The position numbers were made by a program, and so were the translations under genes. From Catajapyx aquilonaris (lineage: Eukaryota): a stretch of DNA of 64,000 nucleotides. The notes under the pieces are model-generated. The model was not told the DNA's origin. It ran no database searches and was given only the letters and a program-made list of their open reading frames with translations. Every line of letters starts with the position of its first letter. Position 1 is the first letter of the stretch. Location of the stretch: NCBI GenBank assembly GCA_000934665.2, contig KZ537981.1, positions 1 through 64,000 on the forward strand, in the 5' to 3' direction. This document shows, piece by piece, positions 1 through 30,227 of the stretch.

Positions 1-1129
1 ATATCCTCAAACTCCATTTCCTCCTTACTTTCTGGTTTTTCCAGAGGTCTTTGGAGATGTTTTTCATATGGCAATAAATCATATTTGTATGGAAAATGAG
101 TACAATGAATATTTCTCCTTTACCCACCTCTGCCCCCTTCCCGCATACCCTACCAGCAAGTTGAGTTTGTTTCCATGGCAACAACAAAATTATTCCATAG
201 TCTTCTGACATGTTTTCTGGTATTCTATTATTTATTATATTATCTTCATTCTTCTGGTATAGGTAGGCCTAGTACGTGGCAATAAAAACTCACATCAGGA
301 GGGTCGCGAATTTTGAGTGGCGGTTTTTTGGGGTCGCCGACGAAAAAGATTGGAAAGCACTGTATCCAAGGTACTGTATCAAGGGTATACAGAAGTACAA
401 GGCCCTGCCACACTTCTCCTGTGGCGCGGGGGAGCGCCCGTCTGTGATTGGCCGGATAGAAGAGCCATGTTCCTCTGGCCAGACGTTTGTGTCTGAGGAA
501 CGTCAGGATTGGAACGTTCTATTTGTTGCTGTTGACTGCCAGGAGGCGATACTATCGAGGTTGCGATATCTACTCGTGAATTGAACGGCCAGGTTAATCA
601 ACATTATTTTAATTTAACTAATTATATAAAAAAATAATTAAACGCCGGGTGTTAATTGTGCAATTAGCAGTGGTTTAACTGGAAATTTACACAACGTATG
701 CATAGTGATGAACCAGACAAGCTGATTGGTTGTTGCAGCAAAATTCAGGCGTGCCATTGGTTCGTCGCACTTACGTGTGCGCACCGGAGTAGCCCGTGTA
801 AATACTTAAAAAATGCGCGGTGAATTTCGAACATTCTTGCCCTGGAATTAAAGTGCCATTAATTGCCCTACATACCGTAAATGATGCCAATTTATGTTCA
901 GATTAATGTGCCCCATTCATGCCTATCCGAGTTGCATATTGCATCCGGACGAACTAATGTAATTTCAAAATAATGGCATATGCCACCAATAACATGCCCA
1001 TAGCATAATAAATAATGCAGAAATTGAATTTCCAGCAGCAGAAAACTGTGGTTTTAAAAATATATCATGAACAAATACGAACTATAATTTGTTCATGATC
1101 TTTTCCACAAGTGCAATGCTTGCAACTGT

Positions 1130-4100
1130 TCCATTCTTACCTTTCCTCAATTATCATTATTAGCCGCATAATCCTGCTCAACTACAACGGTGCAGCAGAG
1201 TCCAAATGAAACAAGCAGGTCGAGGAACGAGTCGAACGACAAATGAATTGAACGCTGTTTATTCATTGGATTTCATATGAAAAATATTTCTTAAGTGAAA
1301 TCGGCCACCCAACATTGGCTCTTGAGACTGTTATACAATTTAAAAACTTTAAAATGGGCACTGACACCCACAAGCCAATCAAGAAAAAAAAAAGGAGGGG
1401 GGGGGGNGGGGGGGGGGGAAACTGGGACACATTTTGTAAGTTTGTGCGCGCGTGTACTTAGAAAAGACCTTCCGCTTTCTTCAAATTGGTCTATGGCGCC
1501 ATGTCGGCCAGCTGAAGAACACCTTCCTTTGGGACATCCCAGCACCTCCTGGAATTATACATAATTAGACTGGGTGTGGCAATGAATGTAAATGCGGGAA
1601 TCACCTGAAATTCATCTTCACTTAAGTGTCGTATCTTCAGTCCTGCCGGATCAACGCCTCCAGAGTTCAGGTAGAGGCTTCTGCCGTAATTCCATGAAAG
1701 TGAAGGTCAATGGGTGTGATGGTAATAAGATCCGCTTCGTTGTGTTTTCTCTGCTGCGTAGTTGTGGATGCTCACTAATTATTTCAGTAGGTGCAGATAA
1801 GAACGAGGTGAAGTCCATCTTGGTGGTCAGGTCCGACCCTGAACCAAAGGGAAGTCCGGGGCTGCTCTGGAGTGTCGTGCGGAATTGTCGCAGCCCATCA
1901 GAATTCCCGGAGTTTCCTAAGCCCATCTTGGATTCCAGTGGTAGTTCCTCTTCTGGGTCACTCTCCGGCCCGGAGAATAAGAACAACATCGCAGACCTCA
2001 AGAACCAGCTCGAGGTTGCCAGGGAAGAATGGCGCAAGAGGCTTCAAGGGTGGACTTTTCTCGGGTCAGCCTTCGTAGCCGTGGCAGCTCCACCAAGGGT
2101 TCATCCGACAATGGTCCAGCCATGGGGCTCTTGTTGGTCAAAGGTCGCCAACATGTACAGACCAGAATGGTCCAACTAGTGGCGTCGTCCATCAACAGTG
2201 GTGACGCCTACATTCTAGTGACCCCAGCCAGGGTGTACATTTGGATTGGGGAATACTCCAACGTCATTGAGAGGAGCCGGGCATCCGAGGTGGCTCAGAT
2301 TGTTTGCCAGAAGAAGCAGCTCGGGTATAAAGGTTCCGGTGGTGTCACCACAATCTAGGAGGGCAAAGAGGCGGACAGGAGACATGTGGCCGCAATTCTG
2401 GGAGGCCCTGGGAGGCGAGGATGGATGCCAGAAAGGTGAGTTGCTCTTGAATATTTAACCTGAGTGTCTAGACTGTAACGTGTGCTTGAAGGTCTTGGGA
2501 CACATCGCACGGCCTCAGCTCCTCTGTGGCCCCCTGCCACTGGTGCTGTTGCTTGGCCGACTTCCCGCCGACCATTATGACCCTGCTGAAGTCCGGCCAG
2601 TCCTGGAACTTCTCCTGGAACAGAACTGACTGGGCGTTCTGGCTCACCGTCCTGAAGTAGGCCCACGCTGGATGGGAATCCGCCTTCCATGGGGACTCCT
2701 CTCCCAATGGGTTCCAATCAGAGCCACTGTAGTCACATCTGCAATACAAATATAACGTAACATAAGTAGCTACGACGTCAAACTTGGTGAACTTACCCTT
2801 TATCCCACTTCTTCTTGGCGAGCTTGAGTCCTTTCATCCTGAGATCGAGTGGTGCTTTGTTCCCGACCCAGCAGTAGCCTACATTTCGGACCCGAAGTCA
2901 AGAGTCTGGGAGCTCAGAAGACATATCCTTCCAGATACTCCACCAGCTCCAGTGTCCACTCTCCGCCATCCTCCACAGCCTCGTACCCCCCGCACCTTCA
3001 AGCACATGTTACATTCTATAGACACTCAGGTTTAATATTCAAGAGCAACTGACCTTTCTGGCATCCATCCTGGCCTCCGAGGGCCTCCCAGCATGCGGCC
3101 ACCTGTCTCCTGTCCGCCTCTTTGCCCTCCTCGATTGTGGTGACGCCACCGGAACCTTTATACCCGAGCTGCTTCTTCTGGCAAACAATCTGAGCCACCC
3201 CGGATGCCCGGCTCCTCTCAATGACGTTGGAGTATTCCCCAATCCAAACGTACACCCTGGCTGGGGTCACCAGAATGTAGGCGTCACCACTGTTGATCGA
3301 TGATGCCACTGGTTGGACCATTCTGGTCTGTACATGTTGGCGACCTTTGACCAACAGGAGCCCCATGGCTGGACCATTGTCGGATGAACCCTTGGTGGAG
3401 CTGCCACGGCTACAAAGGCTGACCCGAGAAAAGTCCACCCTTGAAGCCTCTTGCGCCATTCTTCCCTGGCAACCTCGAGCTGGTTCTTGAGGTCTGCGAT
3501 GTTGTTCTTATTCTCCGGGCCGGAGAGTGACCCAGAAGAGGAACTACCACTGGAATCCAAGATGGGCTTTGGAAACTCCGGGAATTCTGATGGGCTGCGA
3601 CAATTCCGCACGACATTCCAGAGCAGCCCCGGACTTCCCTTTGGTTCAGGGTCGCAACTGACCACTAAGATGGATTTCACCTCGTTCTTCTCTGTGCCTA
3701 CTGAAATAATTAGTGATCATCCACATCTACCCAGCAAAGTAAACACAATAATGAAGCAGATCACACCCACTGACCTTCACTTCCTTGTTGACCAGCCTCG
3801 GAGATGGCCGCCTTCTGTCACCATCAAGTGACTTTGGAACCAGCCAATGTTCCATTATCTTTTGGTTGAAGAGCTTGACCCTCTCCGAAAGTGGAAGTGC
3901 CGATGGTTCTTCACCATCACCGGCTTCCTTCAGGATCCTGGCGCCCACTCCCGGTGACATTGCTTTGCAGGCAGCTGCCATGTCAGCCTGAAATAAAACC
4001 AGGATGAGACTTTGGTGTACGGTTTAATCCACTTAATATCACCCTGTGCTCGGCATTCACCAAAAATATTTTGCAAATCATGTGCATGACTGGAGCTCAT

Positions 4101-4410
4101 CAATCGAGAAACAACCCAATTCGACCTCCAGTTACACAATGAGATTCAGTCTAAATGCAGCACGAATTTGGACTGATCTTTTTTTGTAAACAATTGCTGT
4201 CTACGGTTGATCCCCGATGAACTCATTGACGTAGCTACAGCCAATGCAAAGTGGCCTTTGCTACTTTCTAAAACGGGGTCAGCGGAGTGAAACCTGTCTA
4301 TAATGAACAACCATGTAGGTTCCCGCACCGTGGCCTGTTCTGTAACGATACACATTAGAATGTTTCGCTACTTTCGCAACTCTGACCTTATCGCCATCCG
4401 CTAACCAGGT
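1130..4410 (-). pseudogene. Rearranged, internally deleted duplicate of supervillin (DNA-level copy, introns retained)
   Basis: By-eye alignment to the parent: 1130-1263~6647-6762; 1300-1706~6848-7237 (headpiece exons); 2494-2993~8790-9360; 2994-3445~9360-9805; 3445-3520~10510-10582; 3520-3925~15020-15465; 3925-4410~16165-16670. 1698-2493 is an inverted copy of 2994-3782. There is a premature stop (ATC TAG at 2356-2358 where the parent has ATC GAG), plus deletions and an out-of-frame junction. Confidence 0.9.
1698..3782. repeat. Long inverted repeat: arms 1698-2493 and 2994-3782, ~500-bp spacer
   Basis: The ORF track gives near-identical peptides on opposite strands (2029..2358+ vs 3016..3459-; 1651..2037- vs 3451..3831+). 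A 120-nt block I compared (2041-2160 vs reverse complement of 3328-3447) has 2 mismatches. Confidence 0.95.
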
Positions 4411-4434
4411 TATGTCCAGGAGTACCTACTGCCA

Positions 4435-5791
4435 CCAGCTCCTCCGAGGACAACTGACTGACTGACACGCACTGCCCTCACTGAATAGAATGTGTAATAT
4501 CATGTGGACATGAGTGGCAGGCATTCGACTAGGTGAAACAGGCCACCTGAATACATGCCGAGGAGGGGAATGGTGCAATCCACTGACGTATTGGGCTTCT
4601 GTGCCATTGGGCTCTTATTCAATAGGACCAATACTTGGACTTTGGGCTTTCATTCGAAAATTGCATATTTTTTTTTGCAAAAATAAAATCTCTCTTTGTG
4701 CCATTAATTTGCAAAGCTGTCGGGTGACGAACTTTTTTTTTTCCCCAAAATGAGGAGACATTATGATTTAAACCTGCCAGGAGGTCAGCTCTAAAATAAA
4801 TTTTGTCAAGTGGCCACGGGTGACATATCCATGAGAACAAAGTTGAAGAAATGGTGAGATAGACAGATGCAAAGCAAGATAGGGAAACTTAGTCGATATA
4901 TGTACCACATGTTGTCCGCAGGTGCTGACGGCGTTAAATTTCGGGCCAGGTCGAGACGAAATAATACTATTGGCTTTTTGCTGATGACATCCTTAGTGAC
5001 AACCCTGGCTATAATGCAGAAAAATATTAATATGCTGGCCAAGTACTTTGACGGAAATGATCTGGAAATTAACTTTGGTAAGACTAAATTTGTATGCCAT
5101 CACAAAGGGGGGAGACAGCCTAATAAAAAATTCTTCTGGAATTCAGAGCTGTTATCACAAGCATCAACTTACACCTATTTGGGGGGTCCCATTCAAATGC
5201 TCCGGGAAATTAAATAATGCAGTAAAATTTTCCAACCACATGTCGCAAATTGGACAAGCGAAATTGAAGATCTACCACTGGCCGCAGTGTCGTGTGGCTT
5301 AAAGGAAGGGATATAATTAGGCGGCTCCAGGAGACCAAACGATATTTACTTTATAAGGAAGTAAAAGACACTTTTCAGATAGAAAGTTATTTCAACACGG
5401 ACTTACCACTATCACATATTAGGTTAATAACAATGAACTTAAGAAACAGCTCATGGACCTAAAAACTAAATAATCTCTCAACTTACCTCCACTCAAGTTT
5501 CGTAACCGACCTTCCTTGACCTTTTCACAAGCAGGAAACCAGATTATGGCCAGCTCCTCAGACGATGACTGACTGACACACACTACCCTCACTGAAAAGA
5601 ATGCGTAATATTATCACCAGCCCACAACCGGACAGGGGAATGAGAGGCAGGCATTTGACTAGGTGAAACAGGCCGCCTGAATATACAGCGAGGGGAATGT
5701 GAGGAGACATTATGATTAAACCTGCCAGGAAGTCAGCTCTAAAATCAATTTTGTCAAGTGGCCAAGGTGACAAAATCCATGAGAACAAAGT
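4435..5791 (+). repeat. Direct repeat pair (4435-4570 plus 4750-4842 vs 5550-5791) bracketing a LINE relic
   Basis: Shared strings include ctgactgacac.cact.ccctcactgaa.agaatg, gactaggtgaaacaggcc.cctgaata, gaggagacattatgatt and tccatgagaacaaagt. The first copy carries an ~180-bp insertion. Confidence 0.85.
4940..5530 (+). mobile_element. Degenerate non-LTR retrotransposon (LINE) reverse-transcriptase fragment
   Basis: A frameshifted FADD catalytic motif (ttt gct gat gac atc, ~4977-4991) is followed by QKNINMLAKYFDGNDLEINFGKTKFV...KGGR...FFWNSELLSQASTYTYLG, typical of LINE RT domains 6-7. YKEVKDTFQIESYF follows near 5350-5395. Confidence 0.75.
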
Positions 5792-6099
5792 CACCACAGT
5801 GTCGATGTGTGCAGAATATGCTTTCCTTAAAGTTGGGAACCTAGATATTGTGCCATATTCTATGTTATTTGTTTATTGATTTCGTAGTGACTAATCTGCA
5901 ACACTCGCCCCAGCAGGTCGTCTGCCCGCCGGGTCCTCCACTTTCTCTCACATGTCCTGCTCTTGGATGGCAGGCGCAACGGTACTGGTGGCCAGCCACC
6001 ATTAATAATTAATAATAATAATAATTCATACCCCGTTATCAGCCGGCGGCTCTTCAGGGGGGATATTTTTTTGACTGGAACTCTTCGTTTCGTTTTTAC

Positions 6100-6245
6100 T
6101 GCGCTTTTTGGGGTAGGAAACAACTCCGGAATTCTCTTGGAGGAACCGTGGGAAACCGCAGAAAACCACGGCTAGAGTTGCCGGCACCAGGATTCGAACC
6201 CAGGACTTCCCGATTAGCAGTCGGATACCACATCCGCCACCATTG
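6100..6245 (-). mobile_element. tRNA-derived SINE-like fragment
   Basis: caggattcgaacccaggacttcccga gives a Pol III B-box (GGTTCGAATCC) on the minus strand, within a gaaaaccacg...gccgg context resembling arthropod SINEs. No complete tRNA cloverleaf is visible. Confidence 0.45.
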
Positions 6246-6342
6246 TTGTTGTTTGGCACGTAGTTTTTCAGTGCATGCTTAAAACATTTAAAATTTCATG
6301 AAAATATGAGAAAATGCGGAATGATTGCGACCAGCCTCTCAC

Positions 6343-6555
6343 CGTTAATGGGCAGCGACACCAGCCCCGCGTCGATGAGGGCCTTGACGTTCTGTCGTTC
6401 CTATTGCGAGTGATCCGAGCGTGATTGCCACTTCAACTTGGATGTCCGCAGTGTGTGTGGGACGGACCAGCAGTTGGATCAGCCTGGGAATGACCCCTTG
6501 CTGGACGACACTTGCCTTCTGACGGTTGCTGCCAATCACAAAGTTCTTCAAGTTG
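6343..6555 (-). pseudogene. ARMC8: Armadillo repeat-containing protein 8 (ARMC8/GID5) exon with a frameshift
   Basis: An AG/GT-bounded exon encodes NLKNFVIGSNRQKASVVQQGVIPRLIQLL...EVAITLGSLAIGTT and then, in another frame, NVKALIDAGLV. This matches the ARMC8 N-terminus as I recall it (KNAVIGNNKQK...GAVPRLLYLL). The frameshift is at ~6392 and no further ARMC8 exons were found in the window. Confidence 0.75.
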
Positions 6556-6755
6556 CTGCATGCGATTGAAGCGTTGCGTAATTAAATGTAATAAAGAAAA
6601 ACCTTCGATGCAAATTGGTACTCACACGACTGCTGCAACATATCTTTCCATTCTTACCTTTCAACTTATTAGCCACAGAATCCTGCGATACTACAAAATG
6701 TGCAGAGTCGAAATGAAACAAGCAGATCGATGAACGACAAATAAATTGAACACGG

Positions 6756-6761
6756 TTTATT
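6756..6761 (-). terminator. Probable Svil polyadenylation signal (AATAAA)
   Basis: tttatt on the + strand, ~240 nt past the Svil stop. It is also retained in the duplicate (~1258-1263). Confidence 0.5.
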
Positions 6762-7002
6762 TACGGAAGCTAGTAAAATTAAACCTTGTAAAAAAAGGGG
6801 GGGTTAAAGACTAGATAGCAAGTATATTTATGTTAAATCCCCCTCCCAACCTTGGCGCTTCCAAATATTCCGGTTGACTTTATACATTTTAAAAAAGGCA
6901 CTGTGACACCCACAAGACAATAAAAGAGGGGAAAAAAACTGGGACACAATTAAGTTTGGCACTTTTGGTGTATTACATTCCGTGTGTGTGTGTGTTGTCT
7001 GC

Positions 7003-10000
7003 TTAGAAGAGATCTTTCTCTTTCTTCAGATTGGTCTGCCGCCACGTCGGCAGGCTGTAGAATGCATTCTTGGTAAATCCCAGCACCTCCTGGAATTAGA
7101 CACAATTAGAGTTCGTGTGGCGATGGACATAAATGAGGAAATTACCTGAAATTCGTCGTCGCTTAAGTACGACTCAAGTCGGGCTGGATCAACTCCTTCG
7201 GGAAGTGGCTTCTCCTGCAGTTCCACAAAAGTGAAGGCCTTCCGGTTCATGCGGGCCATCACCTCAGCTACCGGAACCGGCTCCTGGCTCAGTCCGTCAT
7301 CATCTTCATCCACAACAGGAAACCAGGTTGGAAACAGGTTCGTGAACTCCTCCGGTTCTGCCCCGGCGCACACCAGCATTGGGGCCAATCCATTGCTGGC
7401 GTCATCTCCGGCATAGTCGAGTGCGGTTCCAAGGGCACACCGCCTCTCCGAGTCCCACCTGGGCCCCTCCTCGCTTCCCGCAGCCCTCTGCCACACCCAA
7501 ATCCGGTCCACTCCGTCCACCAGGAAGAGTGCGGGCTGGTTGGCCTCCATCAGGTCATCTTGAGTGAATGGGAATGGGGTTGGATGCCCAGGGGCGAACC
7601 AGGGGCAACGGACCTCTCTGGCCACAAACGAACCGGACCAAGAGGACATGTGGAACAGCCGCGATGTCTGAAGCAACGGGCCTAGAGAGCTCCTCTCCAA
7701 GGGCGAGTCTTCGCTGATTCCTGCGAAACAATACCAATTACGGCCCTGCAATTAGCAGAGAGCAGGCGACATTTACCTCTGAGGAATTCCAGCGACTCCT
7801 CTCCTTGTTCCTCCTCCCGCACAGCCTTCCCTTTGCCCAGATTGCGTTTGGCCACTGCTGCAGCCAGCTCCCTCACATGCTGTGGCGACCTGGACCCGTG
7901 CCACACGATGATGGAATCCTCTGTGGTCATCACGAATGATGTCCTGTCCCGCAAGTGTGACCGTTCTGCCTCTACCTCCACCAGGACTGTCTCCTCTTTC
8001 AAATCGCCTCGAAGGTAGTACAGACGGCTGCTTCTAACCTGCGATTGTCTGCCCAGTTCGATCACCATTTTGCCTCCAAAGAGCCTGACAAAAACAGGAG
8101 GCTCCCTTCCTTCTTCCACCCGCACCTAGAAAAATAATATTATGCGTCAAGTACAATGCAATTACAATTGACGAGCAGTAACCAACCTGAGGACCTTTCT
8201 CCTCATCCAACTCGACCGTGATGAGGGCCGCAGCTCCTTGGGAGGTGATGGAGGATTGGCGTCCTTGCCAGAAGTAGTACGCACACCTGTCACGACCAGT
8301 TACAGAGTGGCGTGACTGCTGGCCTGAGAGGTCGCGACCTGTGAAGACGCAAATGTCCAAAATGAATTACCTTGCTTCGAGCTGAAAGGTGAATGAGCCC
8401 AAGAAAATTCAGTTCCAACACACTGAACTTACCAAACCTCTCTCCCAATGGGCTGGCTGCTTTCAGATAAGACAACAATATCACACGTGTCCATCAGTCG
8501 AATTTACATAACCGACCCTTGCAAGACACAACCTAGATCATGCGAATGAAACTGACCTGTCAGAGTGACCCTGTAGAGCCATCTAACAATGTAGGTGTCT
8601 GTAGAGCAGAACTTGCCCCACTCCTCCCTGGGGACCCGCTCCTTCCTGTTCTCCGAGGCCTTCCACACCGCCTTGTCCAGCGTGGCCAGCACGTGTCTCC
8701 TCTCCTGGCCCTCCCCTTCCCCTTCCCCTCCCCTCCCGATCTGCTCTCCTTCCAGTTCCAGTCCGCCTTCCCATTCCGGCTCCTGGGACATCTTGGACAC
8801 ATCGCACGGCCTCAGCTCCTCTGTGGCCTCCTGCCGCTGCTGCTGCTGCTTCGCCGACTTCCCGCCGACCATTATGACCCTGGTGAAGTCCGGCCAGTCC
8901 TGGAACTTCTCCTGGAACAGAACCGACTCCATGTTCTGGTTCACCTTCCCGAAGTAGGCCCACACTGGACGGGAATCAGCCTTCGATGGGGACTCCTTTC
9001 CAATTGGGTTTGAATCACAGCCACTGTAGTCATATCTGCAATACAAATATCATGTAACAAGTAGTTACGACGTCAAACTTGGTGAACTCACCCTTTATCC
9101 CACTTTTTCTTGGCGAGCTTCAGTCCTTTCCGCCTGAGATCAAGAGGTGCTTTCTTGCCAACCCAGCAGTACATCTCTGACCCAAAGTCAAATACGATGA
9201 CCTTTTCTGGGTCAAGTGTCTGGTACCTCAGAAGGCATCCTTCCAGATACTCGACTGGCTCCAGCTTCCACTCTCCGCCTTCCTCCACAGCCTCGTACAC
9301 GATGTTGGTCGAGACAATCGCACTCTCGTATGACTCGTCTTCCACTGGACTCTCCGCACCTTTAAGCACACGTTACATTCTAGACACTCAGATTAAATAT
9401 TCAAAAGCAACTCACCTTTCTGGCATCCATCCTCGCCTCCGAGGGCCTCCCAGAATGCGGCCACATGTCTCCTGTCCGCCTCTTTGCCCTCCTCGATTGT
9501 GGTGACGCCACCGGAACCTTTATACCCGAGCTGCTTCTTCTGGCAAACGATCTGAGCCACCTCGGATGCCCGGCTCCTCTCAATAACGTTCGAGTATTCC
9601 CCAATCCAAATGTACACCCTGGCTGGGGTCACCAGAATGTAGGCGTCACCACTGTTGATCGATGACGCCACCGGTTGGACCATTCTGGTCTGAACATAGC
9701 GGCGACCTTTGACCAACAATAGCCGCATGGGGGGACCATCATTGTCGGATGACCCCTCGGTGGAGACGCCATGGCTACGAAGGCTGACCCGAGTGAAGTC
9801 CTCCCGAGAAGCCAGGCCAGCCAAAGCTTCAACGGCCAGGTTTGACGACTTGGCAACTGCGGAACATGAATAATTACCTGATTGCCAAATAATGAGCATG
9901 GCATGACTTACGTTGCTTCACTTGCATGTTCCTTAGCTCACGCTCGGCTACTCCGGTGGAAACCTCCTCGTAATGCGCCTGGAGGTCAGTCCTTGAAGCA

Positions 10001-13000
10001 AGAGCCCGGAGAGGGTTGCGAGATGAGGCTGCCCTCCGCTTTTGAACCTGCACGCTCCTTCGCTGGACCAACCTGCAAACATTACAAAGTTTGGGAGAAT
10101 AAAGAACCATCAGGCAAAATCTGAAAAACGTACAATTCACTCCTTTCAGTCACGACATGTTCAAAAGCATCCTCCTTGACCTCCATTCGCTCCTCTCTGA
10201 GCCCCGCAACGCTGCTGAAGAATTGACCGAACTCCTCGTCGAAAATACTCGGCACCGCAACCACCTTTCTTGGCGACGGCTTATCCACTACGACTGTCTG
10301 AGTAACATTGACAGGTTCGTCAGGTGCCGACACGCTCCTCCTGGGCCTTGGTGGCAAGGGAAGCTCGTCCGGGCGTCCCATCACAATAGAGGAAGTGATC
10401 CCCCGGGTGCGGACTGGCTTCGGCTTCGTAACATAGTCCGCCGCAGTCACCAGACCCGCCTCCACCATCTTCCCAGCAACGGTGAAGCGGCTGGCATCTG
10501 AAACGGATCGCCTCTTGCGCCATTCCTCGCTGGCAACCTCGAGCTGGTTTTTGAGGTCCGCTATGTTCTTCTTATTCTCCGGTGACTACAAAAAAAAGCC
10601 AGAAAATCAGTTGATGAAGCAAAGGTTCTTTCGCTCAAAGCATGAACCTTCCCAGCTGAATTTTCATAATTCGTACACAAGCTGCTGTTCTCAATTGGCT
10701 AGTACAGTACATACCCAGTACTTGATTAGATATGCAACAATGCATGCAACCCCGAGGGCACCGAGAGCCCATACTTCCGACCACCCTGGCATCTCGGATC
10801 TAACAGGACGCGGCCACTTCCTAGCCCGCACATCCTGTGGTTGCGGAACATAAAAGCCACAAAGTCAACACTCACCTCTGGCGACACTTCATTGTCGTCT
10901 TTGTTATCAGCGGTGCCAATTGACGACAGCCTCTGGTTCCAGCTCTCCTTGTGCTTGACCAACGCGGCCAACCTGCGTGTGGATTTGGGATTAGTACACC
11001 GCACTTAGCTGCTTGTATAACCGCAATTACCTGTCTCGAATGCTTCCACCTTCGCTGGCAGCTTCAACCTCCATATCTGTCAGGGGCTGCGTCATGCTTC
11101 GTCGTGACAGCCTCCTCTCGACCTGCCTCGGCGACAAGCTGGCCCTTAAAGGAAGCTGCTCCGTGCCGGATGATCCTTGTGCAGCATAATTCAAGTCCTC
11201 GACGCCGCCTCCTCTGGACGACACCTGCTCTTGGCTCCAACTGAAGAGAACACAGAAGACGTTAGCGCAAAGACACTACAATTTCTCTGCACGTTCAACC
11301 CCGCAGTAATACCCAAATCCAGACAAGCTAATTTGGAAGGTGCATATGGAAATGAGCTCAGCCTCTGTCTGGCCAAGGCCAAGTATTTTTCCTGCCTCTC
11401 AGTTTACATAATCAACCTTTTTTTTTTTAGTTGCTACAACTCAGCCCAACTGCCATGCTGTCAATAGATGACTGCAAAATCTCTCCTCAGAACCGCGAGA
11501 CACTTTCGCATTTTTGGGAAAGCGACAAGTAGTCCGCAAAGTACACACAAGTGGGTTGTCACCCTGCGGTGGCGACGCATTTTTTAAAACGCAAAAAAGG
11601 AGGCCCAAATCCAAAGTTATCTCTTGGCAAAGGTCCAAAAACGAGGGAGGTCCATCCGAGGATATAATTGCAAGGCCCCAAAAAATAAAATAAAAAAGTG
11701 CGCGACACTTTAAAACTAAGTACTCAATAATATCTTGTTACACTTGCTCGAATTAAACCTGTAGACTGTGTGGTGTGCAACCTTCAGTGTCCGATTTGTC
11801 GTGCCAAAGAATCTTGCAAATATTTTCGCACGCTTTCACCCCAAACGTAGGATTCACGGATTAATCCCCCGCTTCATTGCACAAACCGCCGAGAATTTAC
11901 CAACACTTGTCAGATCCACGTAAATTGCTTTAAAAAAATTGGCGTGCCAATTCTGCCCATAGGTAACGTTTAAAATCATGCTAAATCCACAATTGAATTA
12001 CAATAGTGGGGAAAAAATTATCAGATTTTTGCCCTTGTGTGATATTATTGTAAGTGAAGATTACCCCTTTTATCATTTAATCTACAAGTTCCGCATTTTT
12101 TGCACTGAATTGGCGTGCCAAATCTAGCCGTAAGTAGTTGCAAACTCGCTTAAAATCCGCCTAAATCCACTGAAACAATAACAGTGGTGAAAAGGCCATC
12201 ATATTTATAACCCATTTTGCAAGTAAAGACTATTCGTTTTTATTATGCGACTGACAAGTTCCGCACAAAAATTTTTGCACTGAATTGGCGTGCCAATTCT
12301 GCATTTTTTCGCAAATTCGCCTATAAATCAGTTACAACAGTCACATTTATGAACGCATTGTAAGTGAATATTTCGACTTGTCAAGTTCCGCTAAAAATAT
12401 TTTTGCACCAAACACATTTCCGTACCGGTACCGCACGCACACGTGTGCATTGAAAGTCCTTCACCCGAATCAAAAGGTATAAACTGACAGGTGTCAACCG
12501 TAGCAGCATTTTAGAGGTCGTTCACACTGCGTCCATATACAAACTAGACCCGATTCACACCCGGTCCACTTACGATCACAATTTCGGCACAGTTTGAGCT
12601 GTTCACCTGCTTTTTTTTTTAGCGATGAGTCACCCAGTGGTGCAAGCAACACACAGGTGTTTTCCAGTGCACACAGCACAGCACCGAGCAAAGTCGACCC
12701 CGATACTCCTCAACCGAGAGGCTCAACTAACTGTACTTTTTTTTTTTCGGCCTATGAGTGTGTGTGTGTTGGAGAGCGTGTGGTCGTAATAATAATAAAA
12801 GGGGGCCCTCTCCGACTGCTGCTGGGTTGTGTACAAGAGCCAGCTGGACTGGCTTCTCCCCCCCAGCACAACAAACCCCCCCCCAAACACCACCCACCCG
12901 AGTCCAGCAGAGCGTGGGAGTTAGTCCTTCCAAGTGACGTCAGCACAAAATTGATGGTCCATTAAGAAGAAGTACAGCACCTTCCATATAATACAGGTCA

Positions 13001-16000
13001 TGCCCAATTACACCTCATTTTCGCACCTTTCCCATTCAACATCTTGTCATGTTAATTAGTCTAGGGATTACACCCCTTTTGATTGCACGACCCTGGCACG
13101 TCACTTTGCCTCTAAAACGGTACTCGCGAATTATTTTTTTTTGCATTGTTAGGTACTGTCCTACTCTCCTGAAATAATATAGAGTTGGCTATAGGCGTGA
13201 CTCTGTCCATGTTGGGGAGGAGCCTATTCGCCAACAGGTAAGTGGCACATCGCACTACGTTCACAACTGGCAAGGCGATTGTTGCTTCTAGCCAGTTGCT
13301 AGAGTGAGCCCAATCGGTATACATTAATCGTGCAAATAATTCCGTTTCGCAATTAATGATCCTCATCCTGTTTTTTGCACACCGCAAATATAGCTCGGGC
13401 TCTTCCTTCCTTCTCTCAACAGTCAGTCTGGGGGCAACGCACGTATATTTGGCCCACCCTTTAAAAAAAAAAAACAGGGGAGTAATTATACTCACTCTGA
13501 AGACAAGACAGCAATAAATACATTTCGCGAGCCAACTTGGGTGGCTTATTTTTGGGGGGGAAAGGTTTTACAGCCCCCCCTATCTCTGGCTAAGGTGAAA
13601 GGGTCATGCACCCGTTATATCCTCATATATTTGGCGAGCAGAAAAAAAATTCGCCAATTTTAAACATTACCAAGTTGCTGAAGCCTGTTGCAACACTGCA
13701 CCAAATCAATCACTGTCACATTGAGGCTGGGTTGCATAAACGATGGTAAATCATTAAGTAATTACTCCTCATCAACTCGCATCTAATGAGGCAACTCATA
13801 CACCAATTGCATATTTGCAACCTGTGTTAAGAATTGGTACATTGTATGCTCAATGTTCACTCAAGTGCAAACGCAACTTACCTGGTACTGCCAGTGAATG
13901 ATTCACAGTCTGTCGCACTAATCACAATCTAATCAGGTCGTCTCAAAGGATCGAAAACGGCAAACGCAACAAAAAAGATATGGCTTAATTGAGGCTACGC
14001 AAACCGCACCGATACGTGCTGTACACACACTCACATCCCGTGCACATGCAAACACTGAAAGGCCGAAGCACCCCAGTGGAGTAATTGGCCTGATCTTTAA
14101 GTGGGCTCCAAGGCTGTGCCACAGCAGGCAAGAATGGTCCTCAAGAATCAAGGAAGTGTGTTACAGGGGGGGAGTAACCCTTTCTCTCTAATAAACACAG
14201 CCTACACGTACGCACACCCGGCACGCACACACGAAAAAGGACGATTTGCAGATGAACGGAGAGCACTTTGGGCAGGCAGTTTCCTCCTGGCGAAAGACGC
14301 ATGCGGATGCTTAGAGAGTGTTGCCAGTTATGCACGGCTTGAAAGCGTGGCACACATCTGGCCGTATTCTTTAAGTGGCCACACAACAGGTGGCACACAT
14401 CACACATGGTGCCCGCAATTCAAAAGTACGAGCAGGCAATTAACAACCGGTAACGATGCTATATGCCAAAAATAATCAAGCATGCTCCAATTCTGCTGAA
14501 ATTGTCAGTACCAAGCAGTGCAACAGAAGAAAAGAAAAGAAAATTCCACACCTGAGGATCAGTCACTTTCAACATCCAGCCATTGCCTTTTCTTACACAT
14601 ACGAGTAATCAACACCCTGCTGAATTAATTTGAATTCGTTCGGCTCTTTCAAGTGCGAAGGCCACGTCTGGAATTCGACAGCTCGCTTCAGCCAAATTGG
14701 CAATATGCGATGCTTTGAGAGCTAATTTTAGACTTCAAGTCCACAAAGTTGGCCAAATGAATACATAACGATTTTGGATCCTTGCCTTGCACCCATTGCA
14801 CACTGTTTATGGCCAAATATGTAAACACACCTGGCAACATGCAGATAACTCACCCGACTTCCTTCCTCCGCATGGATGCCGTGAGCCGCCTGGCAACACC
14901 CTCGTTTCGGATTATCCTCCTGACTTCCCTTCCACCGGAGGAGGATCCCGTGTCCTGGTCATCCATCTTTTTGGGAGGTTGGCCCGCCTTATAGTCCCGG
15001 AATGCGTCTAGGATAGCGTCATCTGGGCCGGAGAGTGACCCGGAGGAGGAGCCACCAGAATCAGAGATGGGCGCTGGAAACTCGGCCGACTCCGGCTTCA
15101 GGATGGACCTCAGCTCTGGTAGTTCTGGGCTGCGACGATTCCGCAGGGCACTCCGGAGCAGCCCCGGACTTTTATTTGGTTCAGGGTCGGACCTGACCAC
15201 TAATATGGACTTCACCTCGTTCTTATCTGCGTCTACCGAAATAATTAGTGATCATCCACATCTACGCAGCAATGAAAACACAACAAAGTGGATCTTACCA
15301 TCACACCCATTGACCTTTGCTTCCTCGTTGACCTGACCCAGTGATGGCCGCCTTCTGGCACCGTCAAGTGGCTTTGGATCCAGCCGATGTTCCATTATCT
15401 TTTGGTTGAACAGCTTCACCCTCTCGGAAAGTGGAAGTGCTGACGGCTCTTCACCGTCACCGGCTCCGAATGACAGCCTTGCTGCAACCTGCACCTCCTC
15501 CGTTGTCACAGGCTGGGTTGCAAAACGTGCCGACCTGTCCCTCCTCTTCGGGCGTGTACCGGATGCCGCTGCCGAGTTCTCCTGCTCCAAACGTAAGAAG
15601 AGCGAGGCTCTACGCATAACACTGGACTGGCATACAGACTCCACCTCCTCCACAGCCTCTTCCACAGTTGGTTCCGGCTCCAGATCACTCTGCATGGCAC
15701 GCCTCATCCTCAGGATTGAACCCAACTCGCCGTCAACCTCAGCTTGCGTCTTCAGTGATGAGCGCCTCTTCAATATGCTGTGAAGTTGTGGCTCAGGTGC
15801 TGACCCGCTTCTGGCCCTGTGACCCTCTTCCTTCAGTATTGGCTTTGATATCGGAGACGGCGAGTTTGAAGGAGGCAGAGGCTCCTCCTCCGAAGCCCGC
15901 TTCTTCAGAATGGGCTTTGGCAGGTCGAAATCCGCCGCATCTTCGCTGCTGCTCTTCTTCTTGAGTATTGGCCTCCCTTGTGACTGGTGTCCGTTTGTGA

Positions 16001-19000
16001 CCGGATTCGGCTGGTTGAGTTCATCCCTCAGAGTGTCCGTCTTCCGCTTCAGTATGGAGTGTGGCTCCTCCAACGAAGCCCTCCGCTGCTTAAGAATGGG
16101 CTCAGGTGATCCTATCCCTGCTCGACTATTTCCAGAGAAGCCGTCCTCATCCAGACTGACTCGCTTCTTCAGGATCCCGCCCACTCCCGGGGACATTGCG
16201 TTGCAGACAGCTGCCATGTCGGCCTGAAATAAAATCAGCAGTAGACTTCAATGGCTTTCCACCTAATCCACTAATACCACCCTGTACTTGGCATTCACCA
16301 AATATATTTTGCAATGCATGTCACTGTTAAATGTGTGCATGACTGGAGCTAATCAATCGAGAAACAACCTTCAAATAAAGAATGAGATTCAGTCTAAACG
16401 CAGCACAACTTTAAACTGATTTTTTTTTTAACAATTCTGTTTACGGTTGATCCCCGATGAACTAATTGACGCAGCTACAGCCAATGCAAAGTGGCCTTTG
16501 CTACTTTCTAAAATGGGGTCAGCGGCGTGAAACCTGTCTATAATAAACAATCATGTACGTTCCCACCGCAACCTGTTATTTAAGTATGAAACATTGCCCC
16601 CCGTGGCCTTTTCTGTAACGATGCACATTAGAAGGTTTCGCAATGCTGACCTTTTCACAATCCGCTAACCAAATTATGACACGCGCCATTTCACAAATAT
16701 CCTGCCCAGAGGGATTAACCATATGTTCTGAGACACACTGTCATAACATGTTCAGTATGCTTGAACTATTACGATGGGACCATTTGACCAATCAACTCCC
16801 CCCACACTAATTGAAGGTCAAGCATTGCACTGTGCTAATGAGACCTCCTGCGATACAACGCATTAATGATTCACATTAGCAAGGAGCTACTTTACGTACT
16901 ATGTAAATACGATGGTTACAGTTGCTGGATATATATCCCACTTGCACTTGCACCACGCACATGCGTCTCTAAACAGAGAGGCGGGCCACCTGGGACTGCA
17001 GCAGCCGACGCTCTATCCCGCGACCTTGACTTTGACACCCCTGACCCTGACCTCGCTCCCCCAGCGTCATTACCTGCTCGGGTGAAGGTCGCCTCTTGAG
17101 GATCGATGGCGGGACGGACGACGACGCCACCGACGCCGCACAGGCGCTCCCGACGCCCGGCTCGTTCCTGGTCTTGAGGATGCTCGACTGGGCCCTGGGC
17201 AGCACCAGGGGCTGATGGTGCCTCTGACTGCTGGCCCAGCAGGCCTCCTCTGAGGATTCAGTCAGTCTCTGGACGCGGTCAGCCGTGTCCCTAGCCACCG
17301 CCGACAGCGTCTCCAGGCGTCCAGCCAGCTCCTCAGACGACGACCCAGTCGCCCTCGCTGCAAACAACGTGTCAGTCACACAACCCGCCCACTCAAAACT
17401 AAAGCCAAATTGAACAATACGAGCCCAAGTCCGAGCGAGGAAATGGGCCACATGATTCAATGGGACCAACCTGGCGAGAGGGTCTTGGCATCCTGCGTGG
17501 GCGATGACGACAGAAGCGAGAGTGACCTTGACCTCAGGACGGGGGGTATCTCCGGTCGAGGGCTGACCAGCGACCCGCCCCTGTCCCGCCCGCCCCCGGG
17601 TCGAGGAGGGGTCGGACTGGTGCTGGTGCTGACCACATCCGGACCAGCACTCTGAGAGACACCGCTGCTGACCTCAGTCGACGACCCTGACCTCTTCCGC
17701 CTCTGCCGTCGCCAGTTGTCATCTGAAACAAGTCACGAAACACCGGCGTCAACAACCACTGACCGCAGAAGAAGGGCGGTAACCGCGAAAAGAGATCCAC
17801 ATCTCTTCTCCGCAAAGTTCCGTGACCGTCGCGCAAACCTTTTTCGCATTAAAAAAAAATAACATTAATAAAAAAAAATCCGCACGTCACCCAACTTCCG
17901 GTCATGTCGACAAGTTTGTCGACCCTACCACGAATTTACCATCACGACATCTGAAGTGTTCCTATCGCTATCAATACCTCCGGGTGGAAAATGAAAGGTT
18001 CATTCACACGGTACAAAAACTGGACCGGGTCCGAACCCAGTTCACTTTGGTTGGCTGGGGAAGTCGCCAACCCAACTGCTCTGGGCAAATTCTTAAAGGC
18101 ATGTGTTTACGCCCTCGCGATTTGAGCCTCGGTCGCACGACCAGATGCTTTGCGACCGACAAAAAATCCGCACGACCAGACGATTTGCGATCGACAAAGA
18201 GTCGCACGACCAGGAGCCATATACTCATCAAGGTCACTCGCAATCGACAAAGTCGATTGACGTCAAAATGACGTCGCCAATGCCGACCAGGGCAGGGGGA
18301 GGAGAATTGGCGACGTCATTTTGACGTCAATCGACTTTGTCGATTGCGAGTGACCTTGATGAGTATATGGCTCCAGATGCTTTGCGACCGACAAAAAAAT
18401 CCGCACGACCAGACGATTTGCGATCGACAAAAAGTCGCACGACTTTCGACCGACAAAAATCGCACGACCAGACGCTTTGCGGCCTACAAAAAGTCGTGCG
18501 ACTTTGCGACCGACTTTTCCTGCTGGTTGCTAAGAGTCTGGTCGTGCGACCGAGCGTAAACAGGCTTTTACGAAACCAAATCGCGCACAACGACCCAACG
18601 ACGAACGACCTTCGTGTGAACCCAGCGACACTGTCCATATACTGGTTTCCGCGGTACCTCCTCTGGCCAAATACGCGACGCAGCTCCTGCTCCGTCTCAT
18701 ATGTCTCCTAGCACGAAACACTGAGGTCCAACAGGTGTCGGCCACATCCATCCCAAGACTTCCAAAAAAAAAAGAAAAAGGAAGCGACAACATTTCCTGC
18801 TGCCCGCAACCAAGGTGTGACCAAGACCAGCAGTGTCCAATTACATCTCACCTGCATGCTAATCGCCCCTCCCCCACCACCGCGATGCATGTAAATTACT
18901 TGCGCACTCACCGGAAATGCACGACCATCCTTTGCCCATGGCTGGTCACGGTCAGGTCGCCGACAAATGCCAGCAAGTAGCCGCATCTTTATTTACTAAA

Positions 19001-22000
19001 AACGTGGTGACTATACTTCGTATGCGTCATGTGAACGGTACTTGTGACGTGTCCTATCGATAAAGTCATGTTTCTCACACATGTCCATGGCTTATTGTTT
19101 ACCCCAGCAACCAGTGATTTTGCTGCTTCCCTGACCTCCGACCCTATGCCCAAAGCAGCCTTCCAATCGGACCAATCAGAGCCAGGCTGCTGTCTTACGT
19201 CTGTCTCCGGAATGCAGCTGCACAGGAAGAGTCAGGAAGGCAGCCTTGGGGGCCCCGTTTCTTTCACTTTTTTTTGTGTGTGTGCGCCCTTCCTCACACC
19301 CTGTACAGTGGGAAGGACACCCTCTTCTTTCTCACAACACAAATCTGCCCAGTTTTGTACCCATTTACTGCGCGATTAGCTATCGTGCTGGGCATTAAAT
19401 GGCGTGGCGCCACAATCCGATGGCTGCAAAAGAGCGAATCGACATTTCCCCTCCGTATGACCGCTTCTATACTTGGTACCGCAAACGTCATCCGGTCTGA
19501 CACCCCCCCGGTACTTTACGAGCAAACAATAAATCTACTGACCAATTATTGCTTCACCGAGTCCGATGACTCCGATGGCAGCTGCTTCGACCTCCTCTTC
19601 ATTCATGGACCGGTTGAGATTGGACTTCCTCTTCCCGCTCTTGTCCTTCTCCTGCTTCTCCTTCCTCCTGACCACGTCGCCGTCTCCAACTGCTGGAAGG
19701 AGGCGTCCAGAGGAACCGTTGCTGTCCGTGGTCGCACGTCGTCGCACGTTGGACGCTGCGACGATCTCAACAGGCGGCGAAGATCGCTTCCCAATCCTGG
19801 CCGGGTCTGTGGATAAAGGCATTGTTACGCCCTCACGATTTGAGCCTCGGTCGCACGACCAGATGCTTTGCGACCGACAAAAATCGCACAACCAGACGCT
19901 TTGCGACCGACCAAAAATCCGCACGACCACACGCTTTGCGATCAACAAAAAGTCGCACGACTTTGCGACCGACAAAAAATCCGCACGGCCAGACGCTTTG
20001 CGATCGACAAAAAGTCGCACGACTGTGCGACCGACAAAAAATCCGCACGACCAGACGCTTTGCGATCGACAAAAAGTCGCGCGACTTTGCGACCGACAAA
20101 AAATCCGCACGGCCAGACGCTTTGCGACTGACACAAAGTCGTACGACTTTGCGACCGACTTTTTGCCTCGGTCGATGGTCGTGCGACCGAGGCTTAAATC
20201 GTAAGCAGCATCTTATACCTGGTAGATGAGCGCCATTTCTGCCGGATGCAACTGTGGACGATGCGGCGGCGGCTGCTCGTAGACGAGACGTCCTTGTGCT
20301 TCGGACACCGGACATCTCCTCAGAGCCGGAGCTGTCTCTTGTTATGTACCTGCGACGGGGCTTACCATCGCTCGTTGTCGTCGTTGCCAAATTCTCATTC
20401 GTTGGACCAGCCGTCTGAGCCTTACCATCTCCATTCGTAGCCACCTAAATGTTCCAAAAATGTATACGGGGTCAACGTCTCTATACGTCTACGAGCATTT
20501 ACCTGAGCTTGGCCTGAACTCCTGGTAGCTGTAGGACCATCTTTGTGTCGATGCCTGTGGTGCCTTAGATCCCTGGAGCTGGACAGTTCCTCGCTGGACG
20601 ACCACTCTCCATGGATCGCCGCAAACTGACGCCGCCTCTCCTCCTGCCAACAATGATCACATATTGTCCATCAAGCTGCATTCAGATAATTTCGGACGAG
20701 GCAACCAACATTTCTTGACAAATGCTGTCAGTTGACCACTCCAATAATTAAATCGCGTGCTTTGTGATTGACGGCGTGTCATTTAGTGCGCCCCATTGTG
20801 TCGTAATATGTACTACAACTATTAATAGGAAATCGATTGTTACAAAGTGTCACTGACCTTGTACCGCCGTATCCTTTCCACCCTCTCCCTGTCAGAGCCC
20901 GAGGTGTCTGCGGAGGCGGAGTTGGCCTCGGGGCGACGCAGGGGCGGAGAGCAATCGTCCCTCCGGGTCGAGTTGCGCCGGGCTGACGAACCCGGGCTGC
21001 CCCGGGGAGCCCTGGGGTCACTGGAAAGGGGGTCAAGCCACATTGAACCCAAATTTCCACCAAGCTGATTAAATCCAGATTTAACTTAAGCCGTGCAAAG
21101 GGTGACAACCTCCTTTTTTTTACTTTAAAAAAAACAAGTGGGCGCCTGCATAATTAAACTTTCCCTTGATTTACATTTTCGCGGGGAAAAAACACTGCAC
21201 CTTCGTAAATATTGCATGGCAGCCACCTCCGCCAAAATCCCGGATTTAGCAAAAAGTGCTTCCTCTGCCTTGCAAGCCATCATCAACTTCTCCCCCGATT
21301 ATTTTTAGTGTACACAGGGTGGTCCAAGGATGCAGCCGACAAGCCACGAATATTGTTGACATGTCCCCCCACGACTAATTTCTAGGCCCTCCGCAACCAG
21401 CATGGTGTACTTCAACATTATCCGTATATGTACTGTCAACAAGCAAGAAGATTGTCGTACTAATACTTTTCACGTGTTGGCCCATGCACAAATATTTTTT
21501 GAACCGGAAACTTGCAGACCTTTCTGCTTATTAATAAGTCGTCCTTCGATGCACACGTGCTCAACATTTTGTAAAAACAAACGGCCGTCCTAATAGGGGG
21601 GGGGTGTAAACACCTCGCTTTTGATTGCACGAAGGCTGCTCACACTTCTGTTAAAGGGCCCCCATTGTTTCTAATCAGTGGCCTCAGGACTCGAAATATC
21701 CGGGTTGGCGATAATGAAAGTGCCGACCCCCTCAAAAATTCCAGCAATTAGTCGAGCGAGCAATGGCCAGTGCGACATGCAATAACAAACAATATTTGTA
21801 TAGCATTTTTGGTCACTCACCTCAGCCTGCCCATGGCGATGACGGGGACCTCCTGAGGCAGCACACCAGCTTCACATGATTCCGGCTGAGTGTCCCTACC
21901 TGCAACAAACAAGCACACACACACACAAAAAGAAATATAGTAATCACCGGGGAGGGTGCATGCGTTGTGTCTACTTTAGTACAGCCCCCTTTTCCTCAAG

Positions 22001-27833: not shown

Positions 27834-30227
27834 GGCCGATCCAGCAGTCACTGGTGCGGCCCGGGAGCCTGAACTCACACTCTGCGGGGAAAGAACCAAA
27901 ATTAGTAACTCATCCTCAAGCGTCAACAACAATATAGCTAAATAAATGGGTCCCAGACATCCGATGATTGACATATGCCCAACTGATTCCTAGGTGTCTG
28001 CCTGCCTCTAAATTTGACATGTCTTTGGCTGCCATTGGCTGCAGTGTTGAATGACAGGGGTTCCCCGGCAGAAATAGTTCAACTCAGGCCTGGGTTATAT
28101 TTTCAGCTTTGTCGGTTGGTTTGGAGGATGTGGGGGAATGGTAAAAGTCTCTCGGTAACTGAGACCCCACCGCTGTTGCTGTCAGTTCAAGAATCCTCCC
28201 ATGAGAGAAACAAGCTGTCGAAGGATGCACTTTGATGCGACACGCTCCAACCAACTGCTACAGCAAAATCTTCGATCAGATGCCCCATAAAATATTGGCT
28301 GTCTGCGAATGTAACCAGTGATAACCAATGGCCATCTTCAAACCCACGCCCCATTGTGTGCAAAGAGTCGCAAAAATTTTGCGATTTAAATGCGACCTTC
28401 AACGCCCTTCATGCATACAGTTTGAGCCGTTTCAGCAAATATGGTCCTTCGAGTCATTTTTGCACATATCGTTACGTAATCGCATATTTGTTGTGCGAAA
28501 TGAGTGGTTCACCCACTTTGCACTCCACTCGCATTTTTTTTCATATCGCAACAGGGCCATTACAGTGCGATTAACATGCCAAAGAAATGAGGTCGTGTGA
28601 CGTATAAAAGCCATGTCACCCAGGGCGTACATTGTCACTTTGCATTAAACATCAATCGATCACTAGAATCACCTCCCTTGTCACCAACATGGCCCGAATA
28701 TTAATTAACGCGCCTAAAGATGCCCTCCCACCTTGTAAACACTCCCATTTGCATAACCCTACAGACCTGACAAGTGCGCCAATTACGTCAGGTGGCATTA
28801 AAATAGGTGCAAGGTCGTCTATTTCCGGCCGCAATAATATTCGCAATAGCCAATACCTGAAAGTCTAATTTTTTAAAAATTATTGCAATAATTTCATGCT
28901 GGCAGTAGGCGATGGAAGTGTCGCGGGCTGTACCCAGGTTTTTACGATGGTAATCAAGCCATTTGATGATGAAATAGGTTCAGATCCGCATGTGCCATAA
29001 ACACGAAGAGTTGTTTTTTCCTTCCTTCCTAAGCATGAAGCAAGCGGATGGAGCGAATAAAAATGATGGTGTGTCTGATGGTGGATTCAATTCAGGTCAG
29101 TAGATTTCTTGGGGGAGCCGGATTGCCTTGATCTGGCTGCCTGCTCATTACGTCGTCACGGGAACGCGGAAAGAATCATAATTATCATACTCCAAGCTCA
29201 ACTCCATTCACCCTATTCAGATACGCCTTTTTTTCTTCTTCTTCTTTCCCTCCATCCAACAATCCTGGCACATTTGATACGCGCAATTTCCGCCTCCTTT
29301 ATTTTTTTTTTGCAACTGAAACCTTCTCCAATCTAACACACTTTTCCGGCTGTGTTGCCCAAATGCAAAAATGTGCAAACAATTAGATGCTGCTCGTGAT
29401 TACAAGCCACTTTCCTTGAATGATGCTGATCGCTCATTTGCATCACAAAACGCATCAATAAGCCCGGGTCAAAGGTCGAGGCACCCAAGCAATTGTACCA
29501 ATATTCCACTCCCAATCCAATAAATAAATGGCGTCCCCCAATAGATCATTTCCGCAGTGCGATTAAACTCCAGCAGGCTCCGAAACGCACCAAGGACTCC
29601 GCACACCGTTCATGTCAAGCTCGAATAATTCGGGACGTAATTTTATTTATTATCCAAGAAGCAATGTAACCAACAGGACCTCCCCTTTTTTTTATTTCGA
29701 TGGCCTACTATAAAATGTAGTCCACACCAAAGTGTTGGTCATTGCGGTATCTAATTACTGGGCAAAAGGACCAGTAGCAGTTATCTGATTCAAAGTCATG
29801 CGGCAACATAACATTAGCGACTTGATCGCATCACTAGTGAACGGCCCCAATCATCAGAGTCATTAGGAGATAAACCGATGAACCAAATCACGCTTTCAAA
29901 GCGATGCATGTTTCATAAGAAGCTATTTTTGACAGCCATGTCCAAATGAATGTTTATGCTAGCAAGATGAGTCCGGCCACACAATTTAATGAATTCACTA
30001 GGAAAACGCTCGCTCTTTTCTAGGTCTACGGCCTGGGGTACCTATTCGGCGCACCATATCGCCGGGGAAGGGACAGTTTCCCCGGCAACCCAACAGTTGT
30101 TGTTTACACCCAATTGCGCATGAGTAGAACACGGGCCAATAGGGAGGTGGCGGTAACAATATGCGGCGGACCAATCAGAGGGCTCGGCCAACTCTCGCAA
30201 GGATTTTAATATTATAGATAGTTTTAT

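Follow-up and report, generated by a model that had tools for sequence, protein, structure and literature searches.

Does an inverted repeat assembled from the exons of a neighbouring gene constitute a gene for regulatory small RNAs, or is it a by-product of the rearrangement that created it? This question is raised by a locus of Catajapyx aquilonaris, located at positions 1698-3782 of a 64,000-nucleotide stretch of DNA (contig KZ537981.1 of assembly GCA_000934665.2, positions 1 to 64,000 of the forward strand), which is referred to below as the window. The locus consists of two arms derived from the adjacent supervillin gene (Svil). In the original prediction it was regarded as a candidate hairpin RNA (hpRNA) locus, giving rise to small interfering RNAs of endogenous origin (endo-siRNAs) directed against supervillin. 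The analysis described here leads to a more restrained view. The locus is a genuine inverted duplication within a dead tandem partial copy of supervillin. On balance, although with considerable room for doubt, it is probably an incidental and unselected potential source of double-stranded RNA (dsRNA), a 'proto-hpRNA' that arose as a by-product of rearrangement and not as a tuned regulator. It is a real, at least partly transcribed proto-hairpin locus of an already known kind, and its regulation of supervillin is unproven.

Architecture of the Inverted Repeat

Comparison of the window with itself using blastn aligns positions 1698-2493 with 3782-2994 at 93.383% identity; the 801 columns include 36 mismatches and 4 gap openings (E = 0). 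The arms are separated by a spacer of 500 nt, positions 2494-2993. The claimed inverted repeat of ~790 bp with a 500-bp loop is thus borne out. A repeat search delimits a core of 655 nt (1740-2394 / 3094-3748) with 96% complementarity. The 64 kb contain no other long inverted repeat of local type. A search limited to distances of 5 kb gave three pairs; two belong to the arm structure, and the remaining one is a repeat of 69 nt at 18213-18374. The arms differ from each other at 42 substitution sites and by 3 indels; within 1698-1807, the differences amount to 17 substitutions and an 8-nt indel.

The left arm (1698-2493, plus strand) is an inverted copy of 2994-3782 and carries the supervillin-sense sequence on the plus strand; in the minus-strand RNA observed at the locus, it is antisense to supervillin. 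This arm alone has a TAG stop codon (2356-2358), and it also carries, at 2394, an insertion of 1 nt. The loop (2494-2993, minus strand) is a collinear pseudogene copy of parental positions 8791-9358 with several deletions. The right arm (2994-3782, minus strand) is likewise a collinear pseudogene segment, corresponding to parental 9358-9813, 10510-10582 and 15022-15317. A complex indel at 3749-3760 destroys the 5' splice site of the copy of a 66-nt intron retained in it.

The 69-nt inverted repeat is perfect (18213-18281 / 18306-18374, with a 24-nt spacer), and its shape is like that of a small hairpin or a miniature inverted-repeat transposable element. It is situated in the supervillin gene region, embedded in tandem or dispersed repeats of ~35-60 nt that extend over 18100-20200.

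The Parent Gene and the Source of the Arms

The minus-strand gene that runs from ~6730 upward is a supervillin orthologue. It contains gelsolin repeats recognised by Pfam, and its C-terminus matches villin and the supervillin headpiece 2k6m in the PDB. When one exon was used as a protein query, 174 proteins were obtained at E <= 0.001; of the 120 listed, almost all that bear a name are supervillins. The best supervillin matches reach 38-43% identity (insects, molluscs and fishes, ~40%), and three supervillins map collinearly onto 7006-10573 in tblastn. The gene therefore shows the arrangement by which a supervillin is recognised, namely repeats of the gelsolin type and, after them, a villin headpiece at the C-terminus, and its best matches are supervillins.

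The last exon and the 3' untranslated region of the live gene occupy 6728-7088 on the minus strand, with the stop codon at 7005-7003 and an AATAAA signal at 6761-6756. The supervillin RNA contig ends at 6728, and the right arm ends at 3782. The measured distance of 2.95 kb beyond the poly(A) site agrees with the predicted location of the repeat ~3 kb downstream of the Svil 3' end. Joints in the RNA contigs define nine introns of the parent in 7089-15298, eight of which measure 55-66 nt and the ninth 290 nt. A stretch of at least ~3.5 kb of the parent (roughly 11.1-14.6 kb) is without RNA cover.

Three pieces of this gene, all on the minus strand, make up the arms. The first (15022-15317) comprises parts of the linker exon together with the 66-nt intron 15233-15298. 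The second (10510-10582) is a 73-nt segment from the 5' end of exon 10132-10585, and the third (9358-9813) contains the exon of the first gelsolin repeat and a small inferred intron at ~9358-9420. In the left arm, the self-blastn blocks pair 1703-1897 with 15317-15126 in inverted orientation, 1970-2042 with 10582-10510, and 2040-2493 with 9813-9358; the right arm holds the identical three parental pieces in direct orientation. The claim that the arms are composed of Svil coding pieces consequently stands only in part. All three parental pieces were located, but the arms are not purely coding, as they include two small introns, one defined by an RNA joint (15233-15298) and the other inferred (~9358-9420).

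The Surrounding Pseudogene

The arms had been described as lying in a pseudogene oriented like Svil, and the self-blastn blocks are indeed collinear with the parent and share its orientation. They pair 1129-1263 with 6646-6761, 1457-1706 with 7002-7237, 2493-3448 with 8791-9813, 3446-3518 with 10510-10582, 3514-3925 with 15022-15465, and 3923-4414 with 16163-16678. The tail of the pseudogene (1129-1706, minus strand) copies the last two exons of supervillin, which correspond to the headpiece, and the 3' end, with 78% identity to the parent. Its headpiece reading frame is broken, and the AATAAA signal is kept at 1263-1258. The upstream part (3783-4414, minus strand) copies parental 15318-15465 and 16163-16678, the latter with intron sequence. 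The counterpart of parental 7237-8791 is missing, and the left arm occupies its place.

Judged by its structure, the copy is a disabled non-processed (duplicated) pseudogene, that is, a tandem partial duplicate formed at the DNA level and later subjected to deletions. It keeps the intron sequences 7089-7144, 9036-9091 and 15233-15298, as well as a stretch above 16240, and the retention of small introns points to an origin at the DNA level. A retrocopy was also considered, since the 73-nt piece between the two deletions resembled the result of precise intron loss. This candidate was rejected because both junctions, 9813/10510 and 10582/15022, lie inside exons as defined by RNA joints and have no GT or AG at their edges, and because introns were kept. 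The 9813/10510 deletion removed 580 exonic nt and caused a frameshift.

The copy is not uniform in its divergence. Its tail at 1457-1706 is 78.4% identical to the parent, compared with ~89% for the rest (range 87-93%; p = 0.0003). The locus thus appears to contain duplicates of two ages, or to have been gene-converted in part.

It could be argued that one part of the copy is still alive and that the locus encodes a small protein with a single gelsolin repeat. The frame in question lies in the right arm (3016-3507, minus strand, 163 amino acids), its ATG was made at a deletion junction, and it matches Pfam Gelsolin at 2.3e-05. However, the changes private to the right arm in the gelsolin part, as read from the translations and the sites of arm difference, comprise ~5 that alter an amino acid and 2 that are silent, which looks neutral. 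Moreover, the left-arm copy contains a stop codon, and no RNA contig was found over 3016-3507. A protein-coding role is therefore regarded as extremely unlikely.

Authenticity of the Assembly

Inverted repeats can also be created by assembly, when two alleles or a chimeric read are joined head-to-head. The repeat was examined in contigs from four DNA runs of one sample and from run X5, which comes from another sample and another study. Two observations would fit an artefact. No single DNA contig among those listed spans an arm-loop junction or both arms, although de Bruijn contigs break at such repeats, and the depth over the left-arm bin 1753-2336 is only 3.4-5.4 against a baseline of 20-31. 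However, the deficit in this bin is balanced by an excess in the right-arm bin (28-54). The mean of the two bins, 15.9-29.8, is close to the baseline, which fits collapsed de Bruijn contigs placed on one arm.

Contig depth at the arm sites is 1.4-2.1 times that of the unique flanks, whereas alleles would give a depth equal to the baseline. At five right-arm positions (3200, 3249, 3357, 3414 and 3616), the DNA runs show variant letters, and all five are the left-arm variants. At 3357 and 3616, the variant differs between runs of one sample, so both versions are present in the reads. Furthermore, X5 contig 25, from the independent sample, crosses the outer-left junction over 1604-1807 with 0 differences. 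Because the arms differ by 42 substitutions and 3 indels, they do not form a technical palindrome. The inverted repeat is genuine, and an assembly artefact is very unlikely. The misassembly that the original prediction had named as a possible undoing of its claim is contradicted by the variants of both arms, the roughly doubled depth and the junction-crossing RNA contig.

Formation of the Inversion

The breakpoints provide information about how the inverted copy was formed. The outer-left breakpoint (1698-1706) carries a 9-nt microhomology, AAGTGAAGG, that is common to the arm end and to the copy of parental 7229-7237, while at the inner junction, at 2493, the microhomology is 1 nt. An inverted copy near its template, a unique spacer and junction microhomology are the marks of a fold-back or template-switch event, and all three are present. 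The 9-nt microhomology in particular points to such an origin.

The relative age of the inversion can be read from the differences to the parent. Relative to the parent, both arms have 57 substitutions in common, together with a deletion of 30 nt and the two deletion junctions, while the changes private to one arm in 779 gap-free columns number 15 in the left arm and 26 in the right arm. The inversion is therefore younger than the copy and arose when the latter had already diverged considerably.

A history in four steps would account for these features. In the first step, the 3' region of the gene would have been partly duplicated as genomic DNA just downstream of supervillin. Two internal blocks would then have dropped out of the copy, bringing 9813 next to 10510 and 10582 next to 15022, with a frameshift at the first of these joins. 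In the third step, fold-back or template-switch repair may have copied 2994-3782 backwards. The inverted copy would have been joined through the 9-nt microhomology to an older and more diverged copy of the gene tail, replacing the equivalent of 7237-8791. Finally, the arms would have drifted ~5% apart in a roughly neutral manner, perhaps with some arm-to-arm gene conversion. The divergence of the tail might be explained either by a fold-back that linked a newer copy with an older remnant or by gene conversion that refreshed the rest.

Fold-back inverted duplications with a spacer, as presented in the excerpts of PMC3907307, resemble this locus in having a unique spacer (500 nt here) and short breakpoint microhomology (9 nt here). 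The human cases in these excerpts are large and of chromosome scale, whereas the supervillin repeat measures 0.8 kb and its arms are ~5% diverged.

Evidence of Transcription

Run X5 behaves as RNA. Its contigs lack the nine parental introns, all of which are GT..AG on the minus strand, and it has no depth over the large-intron bins of the parent (11681-14600), which shows that it is not genomic DNA. One of its contigs, contig 25 (340 nt), matches the pseudogene with 0 mismatches and covers 1412-1547 and 1604-1807. The sequence between them, a 56-nt GT..AG intron of the pseudogene (1548-1603, minus strand), has been removed, and its splice sites identify the transcript strand as minus. Transcription of the dead copy therefore proceeds in the direction of supervillin, and the copy has kept a last intron and a poly(A) signal that can be used. 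Contig 25 enters the left arm by 110 nt, antisense to the parent, and this portion is mostly the counterpart of the parental 66-nt intron.

Such a contig would also be obtained if the pseudogene RNA started within or downstream of the loop. In that case, it would include only the left arm and the tail, form no hairpin, and be an inert or weakly antisense noncoding RNA. In accordance with this explanation, the sole mapped RNA contig stops at 1807, a position that has neither a loose end nor a splice acceptor. Two indirect observations stand against it. An X5 depth of 1.18 was recorded in bin 3505-4088, upstream of the loop, and the X5 share of sampled words, 0.17, is greater than contig 25 alone provides. 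This suggests a second short X5 contig upstream of the loop, and a start within or below the loop is considered improbable. No X5 contigs were placed over bins 2337-3504 and 4089-5840, or spanning the arms, which is no evidence either way on expression, on a transcript through both arms or on read-through from supervillin.

In the parent gene, the RNA-like run shows A>G differences at three positions close to the end of a contig (8190, 8193 and 8210). Because the same letters occur in a minor contig of DNA run X2, these are polymorphisms and not the result of RNA editing.

Predicted Hairpin Formation and the Proposed Regulatory Interpretation

Transcription in either direction had been expected to yield long dsRNA. 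The RNA folding proposed as a check was run for both strands, and long duplexes were predicted for both, in agreement with this expectation. The minus strand has a minimum free energy of -1756.8 kcal/mol with 754 inter-arm pairs, and the plus strand one of -1733.8 kcal/mol with 757 inter-arm pairs. According to these folds, an RNA that runs through both arms would be bound to form a duplex of ~750 bp, for which cleavage by Dicer would be expected. The strand derived from the left arm would be antisense to supervillin messenger RNA (mRNA). The longest perfect inter-arm run is 155 bp. The 21-mers identical to the parent region 6700-17700 number 112 of 776 in the left arm and 107 of 769 in the right arm, and some of these may be intronic. 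Two of the features looked for in a locus of the hpRNA type are thus present: near-perfect arms suited to an intramolecular duplex and target-homologous stretches of siRNA length.

These features invite the interpretation of the locus as a working hpRNA gene. A minus-strand transcript would then span the arms and be diced, and antisense siRNAs from the left arm would cleave those supervillin mRNAs in which the linker and first-gelsolin-repeat exons are present. Selection for this regulation would maintain the locus. Such a gene is an appreciable possibility, although an unlikely one. It would agree with the position of a long near-perfect inverted repeat of target exons beside the target itself, with the left-arm 21-mers identical to the parent (112 of 776), and with minus-strand transcription into the left arm, accompanied by splicing and a kept poly(A) signal. 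The perfect 155-bp run, which goes beyond chance (p = 0.0099), and published precedent also favour it. On the other hand, no contig spans the arms. In addition, supervillin is a housekeeping cytoskeletal gene, unlike the young selfish genes silenced by the hpRNAs taken here for comparison.

The tests for selection likewise give this interpretation no support. One test that had been put forward asks whether G:U-compatible mismatches are in excess on one of the strands, and its outcome was negative. The arm differences outside one complex block comprise 17 transitions and 17 transversions, so that half of them are of the type that breaks pairing. Among the 17 transitions, 6 are G:U-compatible on the minus strand and 11 on the plus strand (binomial p = 0.33). 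Nor was any arm-specific conservation relative to the parent detected: 590 of 660 positions (89.4%) are identical in the exon-derived arms versus 580 of 654 (88.7%) in the exon-derived loop and upstream sequence (Fisher p = 0.72). The arms are therefore no closer to the parent than the pseudogene outside them.

Several points nevertheless count against regarding the locus as an incidental product. The 155-bp perfect run is longer than random placement of 37 differences would give, as determined by simulation. It may be attributed to arm-to-arm gene conversion, with preservation of pairing as the alternative. That no selection signature is seen is weak evidence, as 42 differences give little statistical power, and young Drosophila hpRNAs are likewise recent duplicates of their targets. 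The contrast between the tail and the rest of the copy makes the history of this one locus more complex than a single event. Finally, the RNA evidence consists of one contig from one run that reaches the outer 110 nt of one arm, and no contig shows a transcript spanning both arms.

It is also conceivable, though clearly doubtful, that the locus is a nascent hpRNA gene observed soon after its birth. It would have been born by microhomology-mediated fold-back in the tandem pseudogene and would have borrowed the intron and poly(A) site of the latter. Its antisense siRNAs would tune, in cis-linkage, only those supervillin mRNAs with the linker and first-gelsolin-repeat exons. Compared with this possibility and with that of a working hpRNA gene, an unselected by-product of rearrangement is held to be the more probable reading.

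Comparison with Known Systems

Plant MIRNA genes are proposed to have originated by inverted duplication of their target genes. The raw material is the same as here, an inverted duplication of the target gene; however, the kingdom and the processing pathway are different, and the comparison is an analogy only. In studies of mouse oocytes, hairpin endo-siRNAs derived from pseudogenes have reportedly been described.

The Drosophila hpRNA loci treated in the excerpts of PMC10317233, for example Dsim-hp58, share with the supervillin locus an inverted repeat of exon fragments, born near its progenitor, with fully complementary 21-mers in the arms. According to the same excerpts, Drosophila hpRNAs give a weak long-RNA signal over their duplex arms. 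They are defined by Dcr-2-dependent siRNAs of ~21 nt and by an increase of their primary transcript when dcr-2 is mutated, while the supervillin locus is known from its sequence and one long-RNA contig. The targets described there are mostly young and either testis-expressed or selfish, whereas the presumptive target here is a conserved cytoskeletal gene in a host other than a fly.

Human psiPPM1K, as portrayed in the excerpts of PMC3616710, is a transcribed pseudogene with an inverted duplication, the hairpin of which can be processed by Dicer to siRNAs directed at the parent gene. Small RNAs were sequenced in both the mouse and the human case, whereas the supervillin locus is known from a long-RNA contig. 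A further difference concerns the type of pseudogene. The supervillin pseudogene is a DNA-level tandem duplicate in cis and not a retrocopy located elsewhere in the genome. Among the papers listed in literature searches, none links supervillin to an inverted-repeat pseudogene locus; the only hit of the narrowest search was a circRNA review on an unrelated subject.

Neighbouring Elements

Further sequence elements were found around the pseudogene. An element of ~240 nt is present in two copies (4435-4843 and 5550-5791) that are 73-93% identical, one of them split by ~180 nt. These copies flank the interval between the pseudogene and a high-copy repeat. A third, weak match of this element to 16636-16678 suggests remnants of a further partial duplication.

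The high-copy element lies at 5995-6363, between the supervillin 3' end and the pseudogene. In bin 5841-6424, the RNA-like run reaches a contig depth of 1273 and the DNA runs one of ~26,000-33,000, compared with 20-31 in unique sequence; the DNA contigs break off at 5995-6030 and start again at 6364. The element is probably a dispersed repeat that could supply a promoter, and it has no match in Rfam or ARAGORN. A second repeated element is found at 1-584, where the DNA contig depth is ~800-1200 and the contigs show indel and substitution variants.

An open frame at 6348-6581 (minus strand), ~150 nt past the supervillin poly(A) site, encodes a single Armadillo repeat (Pfam Arm, 4.8e-05). No RNA contig was placed there, and the frame may belong to a gene fragment or represent a neighbouring gene's first exon. 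It was the only match when a host gene around the repeat was sought by comparing with Pfam 33 of the 49 minus-strand frames of at least 40 amino acids in 1-6800. The other 16 frames are those over the arms and loop, one with N, and one that runs into the parent. Nine frames of the parent, arms and loop, on both strands, were scanned separately against Pfam. No known microRNA, small nucleolar RNA or transfer RNA was found in or near the repeat: Rfam at the gathering threshold gave 0 matches over 1-20000, and ARAGORN gave 0 genes over 1-7000.

Significance of the Locus

The birth of small-RNA genes is known from few model species, and a dated example would be useful as a case of the earliest stage. 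In the locus described here, both breakpoints can be read, the live parent is 3 kb distant, and there is evidence that transcription takes place. If the interpretation as a nascent hpRNA gene were true, it would widen the Drosophila model, in which an hpRNA originates beside its progenitor, to include a conserved cytoskeletal gene and a further animal lineage. If no small RNAs are made, the locus is an ordinary rearranged pseudogene. It would also represent a simple system in which to ask whether such accidents are silenced, tolerated or recruited.

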